Position numbers and translations under genes: made by a program | Notes under the pieces: model-generated | The model's database searches: none | What the model was told of the DNA's origin: nothing | What the model saw: the letters and a program-made list of their open reading frames with translations, nothing else | Assembly: GCA_021432655.1 (NCBI GenBank) | Contig: MU271451.1 | Location: 1 to 62,935 of the forward strand | Reading direction: 5' to 3' | Source: Atractiella rhizophila | Taxonomy: Eukaryota | Length of the DNA: 62,935 nt | Shown: one piece after another, positions 17,677 through 47,549 of the stretch | Layout of the letters: each line of letters begins with the position of its first letter | How positions within the stretch are numbered: position 1 is the first letter of the stretch

Positions 17677-18467
17677 TCACTTATGAACGCTTTATGTCTA
17701 TACAGCTTTATACTGCTTTATGAAGGTGGCGGTTAAAAACGCTCAGAATTTGTTTACATAATTTTGGCTTCCATCCACTTGCATCCATGACTTTCGTATC
17801 GCGCTCTGCAAACCTGGTCATTTTATTCGTGACAAAGATAAGGCCTAATCCAGTCAAATCTCAGGGTTCTTCCCCATCAATCAGTACTCGTAGCAAGCAA
17901 CTAGAGTACCAAACGCTGAAGAAACTGGAACCAGGCTTACAGTAGCTTAAACCTCTCCCCTCTGTTCTACGTTACTTGTTCTAATCAATCTTGAACTTCC
18001 TTAGAAGGACCTCTTATCCTCCCCTTTAGGCTTTCCTGGGTCGTCAACGATCCTCGTTGTACCTTGCCTAGTCTGTCTTGCTGATCGATCTGAGGACTTC
18101 GACTACACTTCAAAGCTTCAACATCCCATCCACTCCTCTGCCACATCTACGTGGTCCTCTCAGGGCACAGGACCACAAGGTCGGAGTTGATGCTGTCGGA
18201 CAACCTCTCAGAACCTCTCAAGATCAAGTCAGAGTTGGGTGTTTGGTTTTGTAAGTAAGTATAAATTGAAACAAATGGCATCTTTAACTGGAAGTTTCTA
18301 ATAACACAAGCACTTAAGTGAGGGATAGAACGTCAAACGATCGAGGATCTTCTTAAGTTACTCTCCAAAGAGACAGTAGTCGGAGGCATTCCTAACAAAG
18401 TGTACAAAGGCAATTGTATCAAATGTCCGTTTCTCCTTCCTGGCATCCCAGGATGCACAGTGGAAGT

Positions 18468-37631: not shown

Positions 37632-39205
37632 CTACTCGGTAAGAGTGAAATCGAGATTCAAAGTTTTGGCATATTTTGTCGCTTCATCCATTTCCCTCCT
37701 GGACCACAATCCAAAAAAATTAATCAGTTTCACTGTGCTTCCAGCTGTGAATTGGTCCAGAACATTCAACAGTCCTCTGTATTCGATGTGGCAGAAATGA
37801 AGCTGGAGCCGAAGAAGTGGTCGTATCATTGGTAACTCTGAAAAAAAAACGTCTTGGTAGGAGGTTTATAGATTCGTGTCCACCGTCAACTTCTAAGATG
37901 GCTAGATTGTGCCATACAGTGCCTTTCAATGGTTCTGCAAAGACAATGCCTGTAATATCAAATATCCTGTTGCGGCTATAGAAGACCTTCAGGGTGGATG
38001 AATGTTCAAGAAAAGTGACAACATTCGGATCCAGAGCGTGTTGGGGAGTTAAGCTTAATATATTGGCTCTACGAATGAGCGGGCCTAGGACTAAGCACAT
38101 GAAGTGTTGACTTCCACCCTTTAGTTCCAACAGAGCAAGATTCAGCTCCGCTTCCGGTTTAGTAGGATTGATGGTCTTGGGGGAGATGGGAGAATCGATG
38201 TCAATCAATAAGAGTTGTTTCAAGGTATGAACGGACTTCGAGCACGATAAAAACTGCAGGACTCGTTGTTCATCCCAACCTCGCAATTTGATAGTTTCAA
38301 GCGTACGCAAATAGGCTAACGACAACAAGATAGACCTGTTGTGATCTGATGCGGGATATATGAGGTCTACAAATCTGATCTGTTGGACACTTTTCAGGAG
38401 GGTGAAGAGGCTTGGTAGATCAATCTGATCTCGAGCATCGATTATCCTATACCGTAATTCGGTCCAATGCGAACGGTAAAAATTGCCATTCTGCTTCAAC
38501 GACATTTGCTTCTCAGTCGCCGCGAGAGGTTCCGTCTCAAAAGTTTTCGCGTAGTCCCGCCATTCGCGGCAAACTAATCGGTACCTCACGTCTATGCCCC
38601 TCCACCATCCTTTCCGAAGATGAGGCATCGCAAAGCTTCGATTCTGGTAGGTCCCCTTCTCACCTTCGAAACAGATCGACAAGACGGAATGCAACAGTTC
38701 TGGTGGTAATCTAGATATGTAAGGCTTGTTAGCCTGCGTTGTAAGTTGTATACACCAAGAGCCTCGACTCATTTGCTGTGGAATCGGGACAACTCCTGAT
38801 TCGCTCTCGAAAGTGAGCAGATAGCTTTGAAATTCCCAAACGTCATTAACATCTTGAGGAAGAGGTTCCAGTACGGCAATGCCTTCTCCCCCTTCCCAGA
38901 GGTAAGATGAAGACAAAATGCAATTCATAGAGTATCGTAAACCATGCCAAACTCCCAATGTATTCAAAATTAAAGAAGATGAGGTTTTGAAGTTGGATGC
39001 CAAGAGCTTCGAGTTCTGTCAAAAATACGTTATGTGAGGCAACTGGGTAATGGAAGTTTGTCGTTAGATGGATGACGATATTCCGTAAACATGTTGTAGA
39101 GACAAAGGAACTCGTCCAAGTAATAATAGGGAAACAACTCCTGTTGGGGTAATGCCCCATAACGTGAATAACGGGCGTAAGTTCGTGAACAGCAAGCTGT
39201 GTCAT
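37632..39205 (-). CDS. F-box protein with LRR-like region; frameshifts near 38890 and 37845
   Basis: F-box PYISRLPPELLHSVLS...RYRLVCREWRDYA followed by Leu-rich repeats. The tail LAILEVDGGHESINLLPRRFF continues in ORF 37632-37829 after a shift in an A9 run. Confidence 0.7.
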
Positions 39206-40397
39206 ATCCCAGCGATTCTATGATCCGAAGGGTTGTCAGCTAAGGTGAAGAAGTGAGAAGAAGGTTGACGATTATTGCAGGCGGTTGGGGTATTCGATAA
39301 AGTAGTGGCTTAAAGTATAATATTCGAGATATCAAGATGATACTATTGTAGATGAGACGACGATTATGATAAATGAGTAAGGGTTCACATACGTTTTCAG
39401 CAGCCAAACCCTGACATGGAAGTGACAGGAACTGTCTACTTACCCATTTTTTTGCCAGCTGAGAACAAGTTCTTTGCGGTATGATCCTAGTTGTTTCAAC
39501 TGATCCGTAGCAATCTTGAATTTAGCCGGATTTGGTGAGGCAGAGAAGTGAGCAGCAGCAAAAGTGGTGAGTATTTGCGCAGCACAGACGATGTTGGATG
39601 GCGATTGTCATCTTGGTTCACCTTTCTTGTTCTTAACACTTTGTCCATGCCATGCTTACCTCTGAGAAGTACTTCAGTGCTATGGAGGTTCAGCCCAACA
39701 TCACAATTACATTTCACTCTCGTATTCAAGCTGGGATCGCCTTGCACCGGACCCTCGGAAATGATAGATAACAGAACTCTATGATTTGTGGATGGCAGAA
39801 GTTGGGTCAAGAACTCGAAGCATTCGTCCACAATTGGAAAGGTGAAGGGTGAAAAGCATGAAGCTCAAATGCAGACTTTGTTCCTATGGATTTGACCTGT
39901 GTATCATAGAAGCTTGGATGGACATAATCTTGAGAAAGATACTGGAAAGAGGAGGTAACTTCATTTGATTGATTCGGCTACAAATGTTGTGTGCCCTTCA
40001 GGCATGTGTGATAACAGGATTCTCGTAAACTGATAGCTCGAAAGTTAAAAGGAGACTGATGCTAATTGCGATTTGAAGAAGGAAACCTCAATCAATCATT
40101 GCAAAATGTAAGGGAGGAAACATGTCAGGGGATATACCTTGGTACAGAAAAATTCATGTCCCGATTCAAGGATTTAATTCCTTCGGGTTCTTTTAAATGG
40201 TCAAATCATGCCCAAATTGTTTGATCTAGGGCTCCAAAACGACAGTTGAAAGAGACAAAGTGATACAAGAAAGTAGAGGCAAAAGGTGGGCCGAGACCAG
40301 ACGGGATTGTGGAATAGATATGTAGTCGGTAGCGGGGGGACGACGAGGTGCGACAGCCGTGATTTCATTTCGGAATCGTAAGGGAAGAGGGATTTGC

Positions 40398-40768
40398 TCA
40401 TTCCATTTGGTTTCCTCCGAAACTGAAACCGCCACTAGGAGCAGCGACGTCGGATTGGAAGGCAAAGGCACCAGAGGGATCGGCTTGTCCAGCATCGATT
40501 CCGGTTTGTTGATCGTCATCATCAGGCTGGGGTTCGTATCCGTCAACAACGGTTTCAGCTCACAGAAAAGAACGCGTACGAAGTATTTATCCATAATGAA
40601 AAAGCATTTCTTGTAGATCTCCACGTTCTCATGATGCTGGAGATTGTGGATGGTGACCATTCCGCCAGCCTCCTCAACAAAGATGGAGTATTGATTGACT
40701 CCGCCGTTCTGCTCTTTATCAAGCTCTCCGACTTTAAGGATATTCTCAAGTCCGTCCAACGCAACCTG
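40398..40768 (-). CDS. SRP1: Importin-alpha (karyopherin alpha), 3' end only, cut by the N gap
   Basis: [19 protein letters not shown]...[76 protein letters not shown]. Stop at 40398-40400. Confidence 0.96.
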
Positions 40769-41072
40769 NNNNNNNNNNNNNNNNNNNNNNNNNNNNNNNN
40801 NNNNNNNNNNNNNNNNNNNNNNNNNNNNNNNNNNNNNNNNNNNNNNNNNNNNNNNNNNNNNNNNNNNNNNNNNNNNNNNNNNNNNNNNNNNNNNNNNNNN
40901 NNNNNNNNNNNNNNNNNNNNNNNNNNNNNNNNNNNNNNNNNNNNNNNNNNNNNNNNNNNNNNNNNNNNNNNNNNNNNNNNNNNNNNNNNNNNNNNNNNNN
41001 NNNNNNNNNNNNNNNNNNNNNNNNNNNNNNNNNNNNNNNNNNNNNNNNNNNNNNNNNNNNNNNNNNNNNNNN
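40769..41072. other. Assembly gap (304 N)
   Basis: Run of n characters. Confidence 1.
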
Positions 41073-43540
41073 CCCAAAGTCTAAAATAATGTGAAGGAAA
41101 GGTAGGTAGACAAGCGAGCAGGTCTATGCCTACGACGGCCCTACGTCAGGAGATACAGCCGGTTACGAAGCAATTGCAGTTTGGAGAGGAGGTATAACTT
41201 GCGATTCGTCCCTAATTGACCCCATTTGTTAATTGATTTACGTCTTATATAACAAGAGAGAGAGCAGGTTATACAAAGTATAAAGGTGAAGGGGTTCCAA
41301 GTGTGGCAGTAGAAACAGAGGAATTACGCAGCTCTACCGTGTGGTCTTTGCCTAACTCGTTGCTCACCACGTACACCCTATTATGTCTAAAACTTCTCGC
41401 TTGATGAACATACTTTTATACATATAGAAAGGAGACGGTTCGGTTCATGCGTTACGGTGAAGTAAAATATCTGTCAGTATGTTACATTATGCAAAAACCG
41501 TAGTAACTACTTCCATCGCGTATTTTATTACCCTATTACCCTACGAAACGTTTCTAAAGTGTAAATCCCTGACTCCATCAGGATTCGAAGTTGAAGCGAT
41601 ACGACATAAGAGAGAGAGCAGGGGAATGCACGCTCTGCTATGTGGAGTAAGTGAACGTGTATGCAAAGGATGATAAAGACGACCGTTCTGTGTCTTTACC
41701 ACGTCATCGCCTACCGTAGTTTTGTTCCAACGGGCATAAGTGTAGTTAAAATAAAGCTAGTGTATGTGTTGTGGCAAGGGTCGAGGTGTCGTATGTCTAA
41801 AAGGGCGAATGTTAAGATTTGTTAAGGGTTAGTAAATTTCGTTATTTTTACCAACGGGTTTAGGAAGGAATCATAAAGACGAGGTGAAGAACGAAGGGAT
41901 AGAGAAACAGGTAAGGGAGGTAGAGAAGCTCATGTGTCGTAAGCAAGCGTTGTCCACCTTCTCTACCTTCACTTATGAGCCTAGATTGTTTAGTAACCTA
42001 GTACTGGTATATGTACAGCGACCGCTCGTGTCTTATTTGTGTATATGTTTCACGTTTTGTTCAAGGACAATGACAAGGCCTCGGCTTTTGAAACAAAGAA
42101 CGACGTGTTTTTTAGTTCTGGCGGTAGAACTCGCGTGCAGTTAAAGGTTCGTGTCTTAGAGAAATTTTGAGGTAGTTAATAGGGATAGTACCGGAGATAT
42201 CTTGTGGCGTTCTTGTGAATATTCTTGTTTCCGCAAAAGTTCGTTCTACTTGACTCCTCCTCCGCGCTTCTCGTCGTCCACCTTTAGTCTGCAGTCTTTG
42301 CACTTCTTAGACACCGGTTCTCCTCTTTAAACCGTCTACACCCACTACTATACCCTCTATCGCTGCTACTCCGACAACGGTGTCACACTCGTGGAAAGCT
42401 AAGCGCTAACCCGCTCTACCCAAATGCCTTACTAGCCTCGTCGAACCTGCGGGTAGAAGTCCTTGTTGAAGGAGTTTACCAGGTAAGAAAAGAGGCTGAG
42501 ACAGCTTCGAGTTAACCTACGCCGATGGTTTAAAGCTTTCTAGGACAGCTTCCTCTCCTTGGGGTGGCTAGCTATTTCAGTAGCTTTAGCCGCACTAGCT
42601 TGCCTACCCACTCACGCGTAAAACGGGCAACACTTGTTACTTTAACTCTGCAGCCAGATCAACTCGCGACGAGGCATCGGGTGTGAGATACTAGGTCCAG
42701 GCATGAAGCACATCTACACGGAGATCTAAAAAAATACATGGACACGAAGATCAAGCTTACGCGGACCCCCCAATGGTTGCAACGAAGGCACGCAAGTAGT
42801 GTAGGAAATGAGAAACGGACGTGATTACAATTTAAAATCCCTTGTAGGCTCGTGTGGGTTCATCAGTAACGTCGACCACGACAAGGTCAGAAGTAGCTTG
42901 AAGAAAGAAGTGGGCCACGAGCTGCATGCACTCGTTCGTCAAACCCGTGAACCCTTGTAACGTCCTCTATCGGGATTTACAGCTCTGATACAGGAAGTTC
43001 GACCGCGAGACGCAGGGAATAACCGAGAAGAGTTGCTCCCGGTGTTTAACTGGTACGACTCCTTACGATGAACCTGGAACTCGTTAAAAACAGCTCCTTC
43101 CTTGGGCGTTGGTCTAACCCTTAACCACGCAAAAGGGCACAAGTCTGCAAACCTACTCATGAGTCTCATAACGCAATCTAGAGTGGGCGCCGAAGTCTGG
43201 GACTGGTTTAACTAAATAAGCAAGCTACTGCTTCAGAACTAGCTACGAACAACCCGTTAGAGGATAGAAAGCCTGCCCAGGTTGCTGTTCTAAGTCCGAC
43301 AGTAACTATCGCCTCAGTGGTCTGCCGATCAACTTGACAACTACATACCAAAAGCGGATCCAGCGGTTGGTAGTGCGACTGAGACTACCTTGTCCGTATT
43401 GAGCTGCTCGCAGGTCTGAGGGCGAAACTCCAGCTAGCCTTTACAACAGTGGCCACTGCTAGAGGTCTGCGTTCAACAGTAATGGAGGCCGCGGGAAGGA
43501 CGAGAAGAGGTGAACGAAAGAAGAGGGTTTCTACGCTATT
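41073..43540. other. About 2.47-kb segment written reversed without complementation; holds the upstream region and 5' part of importin-alpha
   Basis: No meaningful ORF on either strand, but the simple complement read left to right gives importin-alpha coding sequence with GT-AG introns up to about 43539. The right boundary is set by where that similarity stops. The left boundary is assumed to be the gap edge. Confidence 0.93.
42189..43539. CDS. SRP1: Importin-alpha 5' exons (IBB domain and most ARM repeats), readable only as the non-reversed complement
   Basis: The complement from 42189 reads [48 protein letters not shown], then [98 protein letters not shown] and PALRSIGNVVTGDDLQTQVV...LLSSPKDAI. 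Several 1-2 bp indels. Confidence 0.96.
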
Positions 43541-44179
43541 ACTATGGCACATGTCACGCTCTCATTAATTGATAAGTTTACGTGAGGACACATTCATGCT
43601 ACAACAACTCTCCATTGCAGGATCCAACGGGAGTAAATGAACGAACGACACTCGATTTAACCATCCAACCATTCCATGGAGGAAGTAAGGGTGAGGCAGA
43701 GAAAGGCACGATATCTTTGTTGTCCTTTTACACAGAATCGCGTCAGGTTCAAGGTATGACTCTTTTGTCAAACACCTACAAGATTATCCGGTTTTTTAGA
43801 TCTTTAGATTTTCGAAAATCCGAGACATCGTATCGTAGCAGACTTACCGATCGTTTATTTGGTTTAAGGAAGAGGAGAGGGAGAAGAAAGAATACAACAA
43901 CGTGAGATCGAGACGTTGTAAGCCTTCCACATCTGCTGTTTCGCAAGAAAGTGGAAAGTGTTTTCCGATTTTTTTCGAGCAGTATTGGGTTCGGCTGCTC
44001 CGACGACAATGAGTCAAGAGAGGAAAACAGAGAATAACACACTTTTAAATCGAGAGTATGACCAACATACGACTAACCACCGACCGACCTGAAATCCAAT
44101 GTCTTCACCATCCCCTCTTCTCCCGTCGTCACCTCTACCAACCTTCCTGCGTCCAACATCCAACATCCCGCTCCTTCAA

Positions 44180-45240
44180 TTAATCTCTCCCTCCCCTCGC
44201 CGCCGCCATCCTCGCTCCAGTCCACGCAGGACTCTTCCTCCCCTCTTTCTTGACCCTCACAAATGACACGAGGACTCCCTTCTTATTACACTCCGCGACC
44301 GTCCTCTCCACCGCTTTAAAGAGATCCCAATCCACCGCCGCCGGGTACGTTCGTTTCCTGAACCACGACGAAGACGGCTTGTGGGACGTTATGATCCTAG
44401 CCTGAGGTGCGGGCAAGGTCCCAGAGAAGGTGTATTTGCGACCTCTCAACTTCCTTTGCTTCCCATCATTCTTCGTAGCGCTGCTGGAAAGGTAGGACGG
44501 CCTGGTCCCGCTCCACGGCTTGGAGTCGGGGGAGAGCATGATGCCGTCGAGGAAGTAGAGGGAGGAGGTGAGGATCACAATCTCCTTCACGTTCGTAGGT
44601 ACTGAGTAGGAAAAGGAGTGTTTGTATCCCTCTTCTTCCCATGAGGATCCGATCTGACCCGCAAAGCTGCGAATACGTCCTGGCACCTTTGCGCGATCCA
44701 TTTCCCTGTTCCATGTCATATCAGCGCCGACTAATTGACAAGGAAAAGAGACAGGACGGACCTCAACGAATTAACCGCCAACTCCCTCCCCTTCTCCACC
44801 GCCTTCAACACTCCCCAAACCTCCACGCTCCTCTCCGTCTGTCTCCCATTCCTAGTTCCTCCAGTGACCACTTCCGTCGGCACGACGTAAGCGCAGTTCC
44901 TTCCACTCTCAATGTGTCCATAATCGATCCCAACGCCAGCACAGACGTCGTGTCCGAATGGCTGACAATACGAGGCGACGTGGAGGACAACTGCATTGTG
45001 CGAAGGACAGGGACCGGACACCTTCGTAGGAGGAAGAGATAGGATTTGGCAGGAAGGGCAGAAGGTGGTTTGGCGGAGAGTGCCGAGGGCGAGAAATGAG
45101 CTGTCTGGATGATAGAGCGTGGAGGGAGAGGCATCGTGATGGATCGTAGGTAAGATCGTAGATCGTAGAGAAGTTGAAGGAAGGAAAAAGGGAGAGTTCA
45201 GCGAAGAACTCAGCCCTGAAGAAATCCAAGCGTCCTGTTG
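44180..45240 (-). CDS. RNase H1-fold protein lacking most catalytic acidic residues, preceded by a CxxC..CxxH motif; 5' end unresolved
   Basis: Ordered RNase HI-like blocks VVLHVASYC, AGVGIDYG...RN, QTERSVEVWGVLKAVE, IVILTSSLYFLDGIM, DWDLFKAV, VSFVRVKKE and GARMAAARG. An intron near 44760-44707 joins ORFs 44731-45021 and 44180-44719. The frame is open back to an acceptor-like site near 45241. Confidence 0.65.
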
Positions 45241-46395
45241 CTGAGCGTCGAATCAGTCGATCAAAAGTCCTTCAGACCTTTAGCAGATTGGATTGGAAAG
45301 AAAGGCAAGAGCGAGGAATAACAAGTGAATGAGTGGTTCTTATAAAGTTTATGGGCAAACCTTCGGCTGTGCACAAAAGTGGTGACGTGAGTCTGGCGTC
45401 GCGACGTGTTTGCACACCCGAAATTGGGGCACCTTCAGCTTTCCATTCTTTGCAGTAGGTCGCGCAAAGAACAATGGATGAAAGCGTGTCTTTGCGCCGC
45501 TGCCCCTCAGAACTCAGGTACTGCTTCAAATTCAGATCGCAGTAAGCTAAAACACTGCTCGCTGCAGGGCGAACCAATTGAGAATGGATTGCAACAATTA
45601 ACAGTCTGCTGCTCTGTCTAAATTACATGGAGAAGACACCCAAAAAGAATCAGCTGACAGAACCATGAAGGCCTTCGTCAGAGTCACATTCCATAGAAAG
45701 TAAAGACGGATGGTCCTCAACTTCTGGTATTCAAGACCACGCCGTTGGTCTCAACGATGTGATGTGCAGAGAGAGGAGCCTGAAGATCTGAGTGATGGTA
45801 TATCTTCCTGTTTTTGAGTTCAGTTTACGAGCAGGGACGACGCTCTGGCTGAGGTTCAAGCGCAAGCAATATCTTTGCGGTCTCAAGAGGATCGTTGTGT
45901 ATAGAACAGTCGAACCGAAGCATGATAACAGCGCCAGTATGCACTCATTCCACGGTGAGCTTAAAACCACAGGAGCTTACAAAGACGATTTGTTGTTTTT
46001 GAGTGTTCAGGCCAATCCACCAACAAATCGTAAATCACGCACGTTCCAAACGTCTCCGTTGCGCCTTCCCCGGCAATCTCTTCAACCCGTTGCAGGTAAT
46101 CACAGGAACACTGATTAATTACTGATTGAGGAGCAATTTTTGTTGTTTGCAGCGGTTCCGTCGGGCGGAATAATTACTCTTTTCAAATCCCGGTCGGTTA
46201 CTGGCGGTTACTTGCCGGTAATCACGATTATTTTGTCACGCGTCTCCGTGGCGTGTCAAAATTTGTTTGGGGAGAGCTCTTCGTTGGGGAGGATGGCTCC
46301 CTTCAAAAGGCTGCCTCCGAAGGCATTCTCACTTGCCACGAGCATCTCTTTCCACCCATCCCATTTCAACTCTCCCTCTTTCGAGTCTGAACAAG

Positions 46396-47549
46396 ATGGA
46401 CGCCGTATTCTCCAGCGACTCCCGAATCGCTAGATACCTCTGGCACAACAAAGTCTGGTCAATCGAGTACCCAGACATCTTCGGACTCGTTAACAGGAAC
46501 GGGGACGGTGCGCCGCATCCGTTATTGGAGTGGTATGTCCTTCATTACTGTTTATGTTAAAGAAGCGACCTTATGTCTTGCCTGAATCCAGGACTCTCCA
46601 TCCGCTCACTCCGGTCCTTTTTGCAACTGTCTACCTCCTCACCGTCTCCTATTTCAATCGCTCCCGCCCATGCACTCCATCCTTCCACATTCCTCGCTCC
46701 CTCATCGTCGCCCACAACGCTCTACTGGCAATTTACTCCTTTGCCACGTTCTGCAAGACTGCTCCTCTCGTCTATGGGAGCTTCATCAAGGCGTTCTGGT
46801 ATCACGGATCCCAGGGGTTCGTAAGGACATACTGCGATATGGATGGGAGGATTTGGGCGGAGGGATTGAATAATTGGAGTTACGTATTTTACCTCTCGAA
46901 ATACTATGAGGTCATCGGTATGTTCTTTTCCTTTTCCTTCCTGCCCCTCATTGATTGATTGTCTGGTAGATACCATCATCATTCTCGTCAAGGGAAAGAA
47001 AGCACATGTGTTGCAAGAATATCATCACGCCGGAGCCATCATCACAATGTGGGCGGCTCTCAGGTTCGCAGCGTTTCCAGTCTGGATCTTCTGCGTGTTC
47101 AACAGCTTCATCCATACCAGTTCGTTTTCTTTGTTCCCACTTGCGCTTCCTTATAAACGACATAGTCATGTACACCTATTACGCACTTTCGACGATGAAA
47201 GTCAACGTGCCATTAGTTCTCAAACGCAGTTTAACAACGATGCAAATCACGTGCGTGCTTTTAATCCTACCGTTTTCTCACTGGCTGACCTGCTTTTCAA
47301 TCATGTAGCCAATTCCTTGTCGGCTTCGGAACAGCTGCCTCCTACCTCTTCATCCGCATCCCCCTCGGCGAAGTGTCAGACCAAGTATCAGGCGTCGCCC
47401 AATGTCTCGCAAGCGACGGACAGAAGCTAGCGACCGTCCTCAACCTCGCTTACCTCACTCCTCTCACCGTCCTCTTCTCGAATTTCTTCATTAAGTCGTA
47501 CACGAAGAGGGGCAGGCGACATGCGCCGAAGAGCGTCAAGGTGGATTAG
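46396..47549 (+). CDS. GNS1/SUR4 (ELO) family fatty-acid elongase, 5 exons
   Basis: HNALLAIYS, FYLSKYYEVIDTIIILVKGK, LQEYHHAG, FNSFIHTIMYTYYALS, KRSLTTMQITQF and YLTPLTVLFSNFFIKSY. Stop at 47547-47549. Confidence 0.95.

Follow-up and report, generated by a model that had tools for sequence, protein, structure and literature searches.

Contig MU271451.1 of the Atractiella rhizophila genome assembly GCA_021432655.1 contains, directly beside a run of N, about 2.5 kb of DNA in which none of the six reading frames makes sense, and the question raised by this locus is what such a segment represents. The window that we analysed is the whole stretch from position 1 to 62,935 of the forward strand (62,935 nucleotides). 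A first-pass annotation, made from the letters alone, had proposed that an importin-alpha gene becomes readable in this segment when every base is complemented but the order is kept, and that software and not biology had written it so, an explanation supported here by tblastn searches, orientation statistics and a junction in independent sequence data. We consider it highly probable that positions 41073-43538 are genuine fungal DNA whose letters some program put down in reverse order but did not complement. What the analysis demonstrates is the reversal and how far it extends, the junction at 43539, and which gene is affected. The block is not a biological feature; the locus is an ordinary, highly conserved importin-alpha gene and holds no new biology.

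The backwards block spans window positions 41073-43538 and comprises 2466 bases, reversed in order and not complemented. Its left neighbour is the sole N run of the window (40769-41072, 304 N), and its right end falls in mid-exon, ungapped and without any marker. The longest open frame inside the block as deposited has 102 codons (all six frames), and in neither the written nor the reversed block did aragorn report a tRNA or tmRNA. The parts of the locus around the block are the following.

40769 to 41072, no strand: 304 N in place of about 88 missing codons (homologue residues 343-430), from the N-run listing, tblastn and the gene model.
41073 to 42188, no strand: backwards non-coding DNA, the true 5′ flank of importin-alpha, from the orientation score and the loose end of the X1 contig.
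42189 to 43538, no strand: backwards 5′ two thirds of importin-alpha, with the IBB domain and ARM repeats, from tblastn and the gene model.
43539 to 43592, no strand: bases right of the block where normal writing resumes, a spacer that reaches the poly(A) site of the gene upstream, from the fit of the X1 contig and poly-T loose ends.

To identify the gene, relatives were found with a 63-residue exon that is written normally to the left of the N run; 786 of 795 candidates reached E ≤ 0.001, and 120 were listed. Among these 120 we picked 12 queries, all full-length fungal importin-alphas of about 530-550 aa with an IBB domain, and ran them by tblastn against two versions of the window, the deposited one and the complement-only one, on both strands of each, so that all four orientations were covered. 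Against the deposited sequence, all 12 queries matched only 40768-40407 (residues ~427-536) and none matched within 41073-43540 on either strand, which, with the 102-codon limit, upholds the initial remark that the segment has no sensible open reading frame. Against the complement-only form, every query aligned residues 1-342 to 42189/42207-43539, with E values from 3e-86 to 2e-112, and none aligned elsewhere in the window. Such a search had been named as the check on the decoding, and the decoding passed it: the coding content of the block is readable solely after complementing or reversing alone (0/12 as deposited versus 12/12 complement-only). The same 12 queries revealed no forward copy of the 2466-base block in the window. 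The best named relatives among the matches listed were basidiomycetes (Sporobolomyces, Wallemia, rust fungi and Tremellomycetes). No protein at least 90% identical to the 63-residue 3′ exon was found: in the list of 120 longer proteins identity peaked at 86%, and in that of 44 proteins similar to it in length, at 85%; the species' own importin-alpha is therefore apparently absent from the protein collection searched.

The searches bear on the most familiar kind of assembly error. Misoriented contigs next to scaffold gaps are common, and the block might be one of them, that is, an ordinary reverse complement, or it might result from complementing in place, the gene then lying on the plus strand. 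Like such a contig, it is a stretch in the wrong orientation that abuts a gap and was made by software, not by the genome. The usual misorientation, however, is a reverse complement, which leaves genes readable in six frames and reads mappable, whereas the block is reversed only and unreadable in all six; its k-mer orientation statistics, described below, are also inverted. Moreover, the decoded 5′ part is colinear with the 3′ exons at 40768-40401 only under in-place reversal. We regard both the misoriented contig and the complement in place as very improbable.

Read in complement only, the block presents an ATG at 42189, a peptide with a basic IBB motif and then ARM-repeat sequence in changing frames, and this peptide terminates in ...LLSSPKDAI at 43539. 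The first-pass annotation had placed the start codon and the IBB peptide at 42189, a GTGAGT at 42609 and a PKDAI end near 43539, and all of these were recovered, the GTGAGT serving as an intron donor in the complement-only gene model. The decoded exons, left to right, are seven.

42189 to 42385, complement-only: first decoded exon.
42440 to 42608, complement-only: second decoded exon.
42666 to 42697, complement-only: third decoded exon.
42753 to 42788, complement-only: fourth decoded exon.
42840 to 43125, complement-only: fifth decoded exon.
43179 to 43343, complement-only: sixth decoded exon.
43395 to 43538, complement-only: seventh decoded exon, the last in the block.

The six introns between them are all of the GT..AG type and measure 54, 57, 55, 51, 53 and 51 nt; these lengths of 51-57 nt match the 48-56 nt introns shown by contigs in the normally written flanks. 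The IBB domain, the ARM repeats and the canonical introns claimed for the decoded gene were thus found, but its frame proved less clean than claimed and needs four one-base corrections. The breaks lie near 42485, 42561, 42911 and 43190, each at a short run of one base. Uncorrected, the spliced complement-only reading holds 9 stops; with one base dropped at each of the four breaks it holds none and encodes 342 residues. The locus accordingly offers no intact single open reading frame, being interrupted by the 304-N gap and by the four breaks. We read the breaks and the gap as assembly errors and not as the marks of a pseudogene, the breaks being probably base-calling or consensus errors of the same assembly. 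They fall within about 1030 coding bases of the block, closer together than the three fixed differences of one base that separate the contig-covered flanks from X1, a density that hints at poorer or different data behind the block than behind its flanks.

The decoded 342-residue model is identical to the 12 homologues at 254/336 to 271/338 positions (76-80%). The IBB and ARM calls on this peptide were made by alignment to homologues that had been scanned with Pfam. For the IBB domain (PF01749), the peptide aligns from residue 1 to the homologues P0024 and P0015, whose IBB domains occupy residues 7-94 and 10-94, respectively. For the ARM repeats (PF00514), model residues ~100-342 share about 70% identity or more with the ARM region of all 12 homologues; P0024 and P0015 bear 7-8 Arm stretches (8 in P0024).

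The remainder of the gene is written normally on the minus strand, to the left of the N run, as the first-pass annotation had reported, and consists of an Arm_3 exon (40768-40580) and a last exon (coding part 40526-40401).

40580 to 40768, minus strand: importin-alpha exon of 63 codons, QVALDG...DKYF, which runs into the gap (Pfam Arm_3; tblastn).
40527 to 40579, minus strand: 53-nt intron, GT..AG; contig 12 of run X3 skips 40527-40579, with CT..AC on the plus strand.
40398 to 40526, minus strand: last importin-alpha exon, 42 codons at 40401-40526 with the acidic tail and the stop codon at 40398-40400 (open frame; tblastn).

The 63-codon exon is 74-84% identical to residues ~430-493 of all 12 homologues and matches the C-terminal Arm_3 family (PF16186) with E 2.7e-17 and 62.6 bits against a cut-off of 28.8. 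In the last exon, whose start at 40526 is set by the joint in the X3 contig, homologue residues ~492-530 align to 40526-40413 (tblastn). What is absent from the window are homologue residues 343-430 (88 codons, 264 nt), and the ARM repeats encoded there fall within the N gap; 264 nt, alone or with one intron of about 50 nt, fits the 304 N. The resulting domain order, with IBB, ARM repeats and the atypical C-terminal Arm_3, is that of the known basidiomycete importin-alphas (karyopherin alpha; Srp1/Kap60 in yeast). Compared with these, the protein is in no way unusual, whereas the gene is broken by the 304-N gap and the four frame breaks and has two thirds of its length in reversed base order.

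A 1281-letter X1 contig and a 940-letter spliced X3 contig both stop exactly at 40768, the first base before the gap. A shared repeat or a branch point at 40768 would explain why all three assemblies break there.

The reversal can also be recognized independently of any protein. Taking the reverse complement leaves the statistics of DNA unchanged, whereas reversal by itself does not. We trained an order-4 Markov model on both strands of the remaining window and scored 500-base windows as written against the same windows reversed. All nine windows starting at 41251-43251 were negative (-4.0 to -17.3); elsewhere, 13 of 238 were negative, with a lowest score of -3.8 and at most two in a row. With pentamer log-odds, the maximal segment was 41078-43545 (score 48.5), the next best being 17884-18077 with 5.6, and the pentamer orientation of the block stood at z = 10.1 relative to 275 control windows of equal length. 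The non-coding part, 41073-42188, scored +22.4 when taken alone, compared with a mean of -17.1, a standard deviation of 5.6 and a maximum of -3.0 for 289 controls. As the non-coding part is inverted too, the backwards stretch is not limited to the gene but takes in everything between the gap edge and about 43540. Neither the Markov nor the pentamer scan detected a second backwards block in the window. The pentamer-orientation score located the block to within 7 bases and needed no protein data, so it could be used to screen public assemblies.

Sequence data from outside the assembly were examined by placing the contigs of four public runs on 38500-46500. A contig of the run X1, which is marked 'DNA?', fits the window from 43539 rightwards. 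Leftward of 43539 it continues for a median of 255 further letters that match nothing in 38500-46500. The 30 letters directly before 43539, however, are the exact reverse of 41073-41102 (30/30), and this 30-letter string is absent from the as-is, reverse-complement and complement-only forms of the window. The segment thus has the opposite letter order in real DNA, and the junction in X1, with 41073 beside 43539, is the one predicted by in-place reversal. The direct evidence for this junction comprises 30 letters of one contig from one run, and the isolate is other than that of the assembly: between 39488 and 40768, 7 of 1281 letters distinguish X1 from the window, which marks X1 as a related isolate or haplotype and not as the same consensus. 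The proposal that reversing the segment in place rebuilds one colinear minus-strand gene is supported by this junction. As X1 fits from 43539, the block ends at 43538; the first-pass annotation was right that the mirrored segment adjoins the gap, and its end at 43540 has to be moved accordingly. It had also proposed mapping raw reads to the segment as deposited and to its reversed version, and here the junction of the reversed version is what the X1 contig displays, in a single contig of a related isolate.

The same junction decides against a complement written in place, which would place the complement of 43509-43538 before 43539, whereas X1 reads the reverse of 41073-41102. The X1 loose end and tblastn in four orientations together refute ordinary inversion as well as complement in place. 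Two further measurements were not counted as evidence. Run depth in 40903-43305 was zero in all four runs (in X1 the depth was about 243 to the left of it and 145-260 to the right), a value to which we gave no weight, since lack of cover proves nothing. For sampled words of 41073-46072, no run held half or more, the best shares being 0.38 and 0.37; this low share agrees with a backwards half that is absent from real data, and it was likewise left out of account. Exact 30-base patterns taken from 40739-40768 and 43542-43571 gave no matches in metagenome contigs, which thus supplied no further independent copy of the true locus.

With the reversal established, it might be asked whether the isolate truly carries natural or engineered mirror DNA in place of the 5′ part of importin-alpha. 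None of our results speaks for this. Such an isolate would be without a readable importin-alpha in the window. In the related isolate X1 the junction shows the normal order; the reversal affects the non-coding flank as well as the gene, and the block stops at the N run. To our knowledge, no process of replication, recombination or repair reverses sequence without complementing it. Importin-alpha is essential in yeast, and real mirror DNA at this locus, for which there is no known mechanism, would remove an essential gene. We give this reading practically no credence.

Natural mirror repeats (e.g. PMC9171763), homopurine/homopyrimidine tracts that form H-DNA, share with the block the reversal without complementing. 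They are short and of low complexity and have both arms side by side, whereas the block is a complex, gene-bearing stretch of 2466 bases and mirrors the real locus of a related isolate.

A further alternative is that the reversal is absent from the public assembly and was added later, by file conversion, by the preparation of the window or as a deliberate control, the N run then being a masked stretch. That contigs of both X1 and X3 end exactly at 40768 would also be expected if the sequence beyond this point had been withheld from all sources. On the other side, the block abuts the N run exactly, it terminates unmarked in mid-exon and the 304 N fit the missing coding sequence, which is the pattern of a partially filled scaffold gap; no result of the analysis points to later editing. 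We judge this alternative improbable and prefer an error made during assembly, although the reversal could have entered anywhere on the way from the reads to the window.

If the block was indeed written backwards by an assembly program, the true plus strand would run to 40768, continue with about 265-320 missing bases (now 304 N) and the reverse of 41073-43538, and then proceed from 43539 onwards. Read from right to left, the true minus strand would present the poly(A) site of the neighbouring gene (43593), about 1.17 kb of 5′ flank and the ATG, followed by the IBB domain and ARM repeats in seven exons, the missing ARM repeats in the gap and the two 3′ exons (Arm_3, acidic tail). The result would be one ordinary importin-alpha gene of the Srp1/Kap60 type on the minus strand.

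As to how the error may have arisen, the position of the block between the N run and an ungapped mid-exon junction makes a partial gap fill the likeliest source, presumably one that extended the right-hand contig leftwards. The N run, with its non-round length that fits the missing sequence, likewise looks like a partly filled gap. The right junction has no N, which would be unusual for a plain orientation error of a whole contig, and we infer a gap-fill origin from this layout. Two mistakes could account for the written order. The program may have written the complement in place of the reverse complement of a minus-strand extension, or it may have stored the bases in the order of a leftward walk and never turned them round; both would yield an identical written order.

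Phrase matching in the literature, a procedure that may miss other wordings, found no description of reversed-but-not-complemented blocks in assemblies, the passages that matched dealing with synthetic controls, with mirror repeats or with other senses of the words. The search thus offers no known bug as the cause. It is conceivable, although we doubt it, that the block is the trace of a systematic bug in gap filling or scaffolding, with many such blocks at gap edges. In that event the same assembly, and perhaps others from the same pipeline, would contain reversed-only blocks that hide genes and create false orphan DNA.

For users of the record, the consequence is that a gene essential in model fungi has been made unreadable, and that 2.5 kb which look like unique 'orphan' DNA are spurious. 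Mapping reads to the record as written, or searching it in six frames, would wrongly imply gene loss. To restore the locus, 41073-43538 would have to be reversed in place, the gap closed and the single-base runs polished. A scan for orientation asymmetry could flag the same error elsewhere, and the value of the finding lies in correction of the record and in assembly quality control.

To the right of the artefact, the neighbouring locus is transcribed and written normally.

43593 to 45277, minus strand: neighbouring transcribed gene outside the artefact, with introns at 43724-43778, 43995-44042 and 44705-44760, from spliced contigs of the runs X4 and X6.

Its poly(A) site, which is that of the upstream neighbour of importin-alpha, lies at 43593, where X3 and X4 have poly-T loose ends just before this position. 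No Pfam family exceeded its cut-off in the largest exon of this gene, Bac_rhamnosid_C reaching 20 bits against a cut-off of 22.1. Summed X3 contig depth over the gene rises to about 685,000, with many variant contigs.

All four runs carry an extra T behind 45068, beside a run of T, and the window's version at this position displaces the long open frame in the transcript of the neighbouring gene; the assembly consensus is probably wrong by one base here. Behind 45068, 45995 and 46257 lie fixed differences of one base relative to X1, the first of them shared by all four runs. Taken together, the four frame breaks in the block and these three fixed differences suggest an assembly consensus that easily goes wrong where one base is repeated.

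On the minus strand at 39217-39444, X1 and X3 contigs of low depth show joints with CT..AC ends that connect 39217 to 39270 or to 39444. Further joints nearby, with the same CT..AC ends and again in low-depth X1 and X3 contigs, connect 39342 to 39393 or to 39433. These joints suggest a further, alternatively spliced minus-strand gene downstream of importin-alpha.
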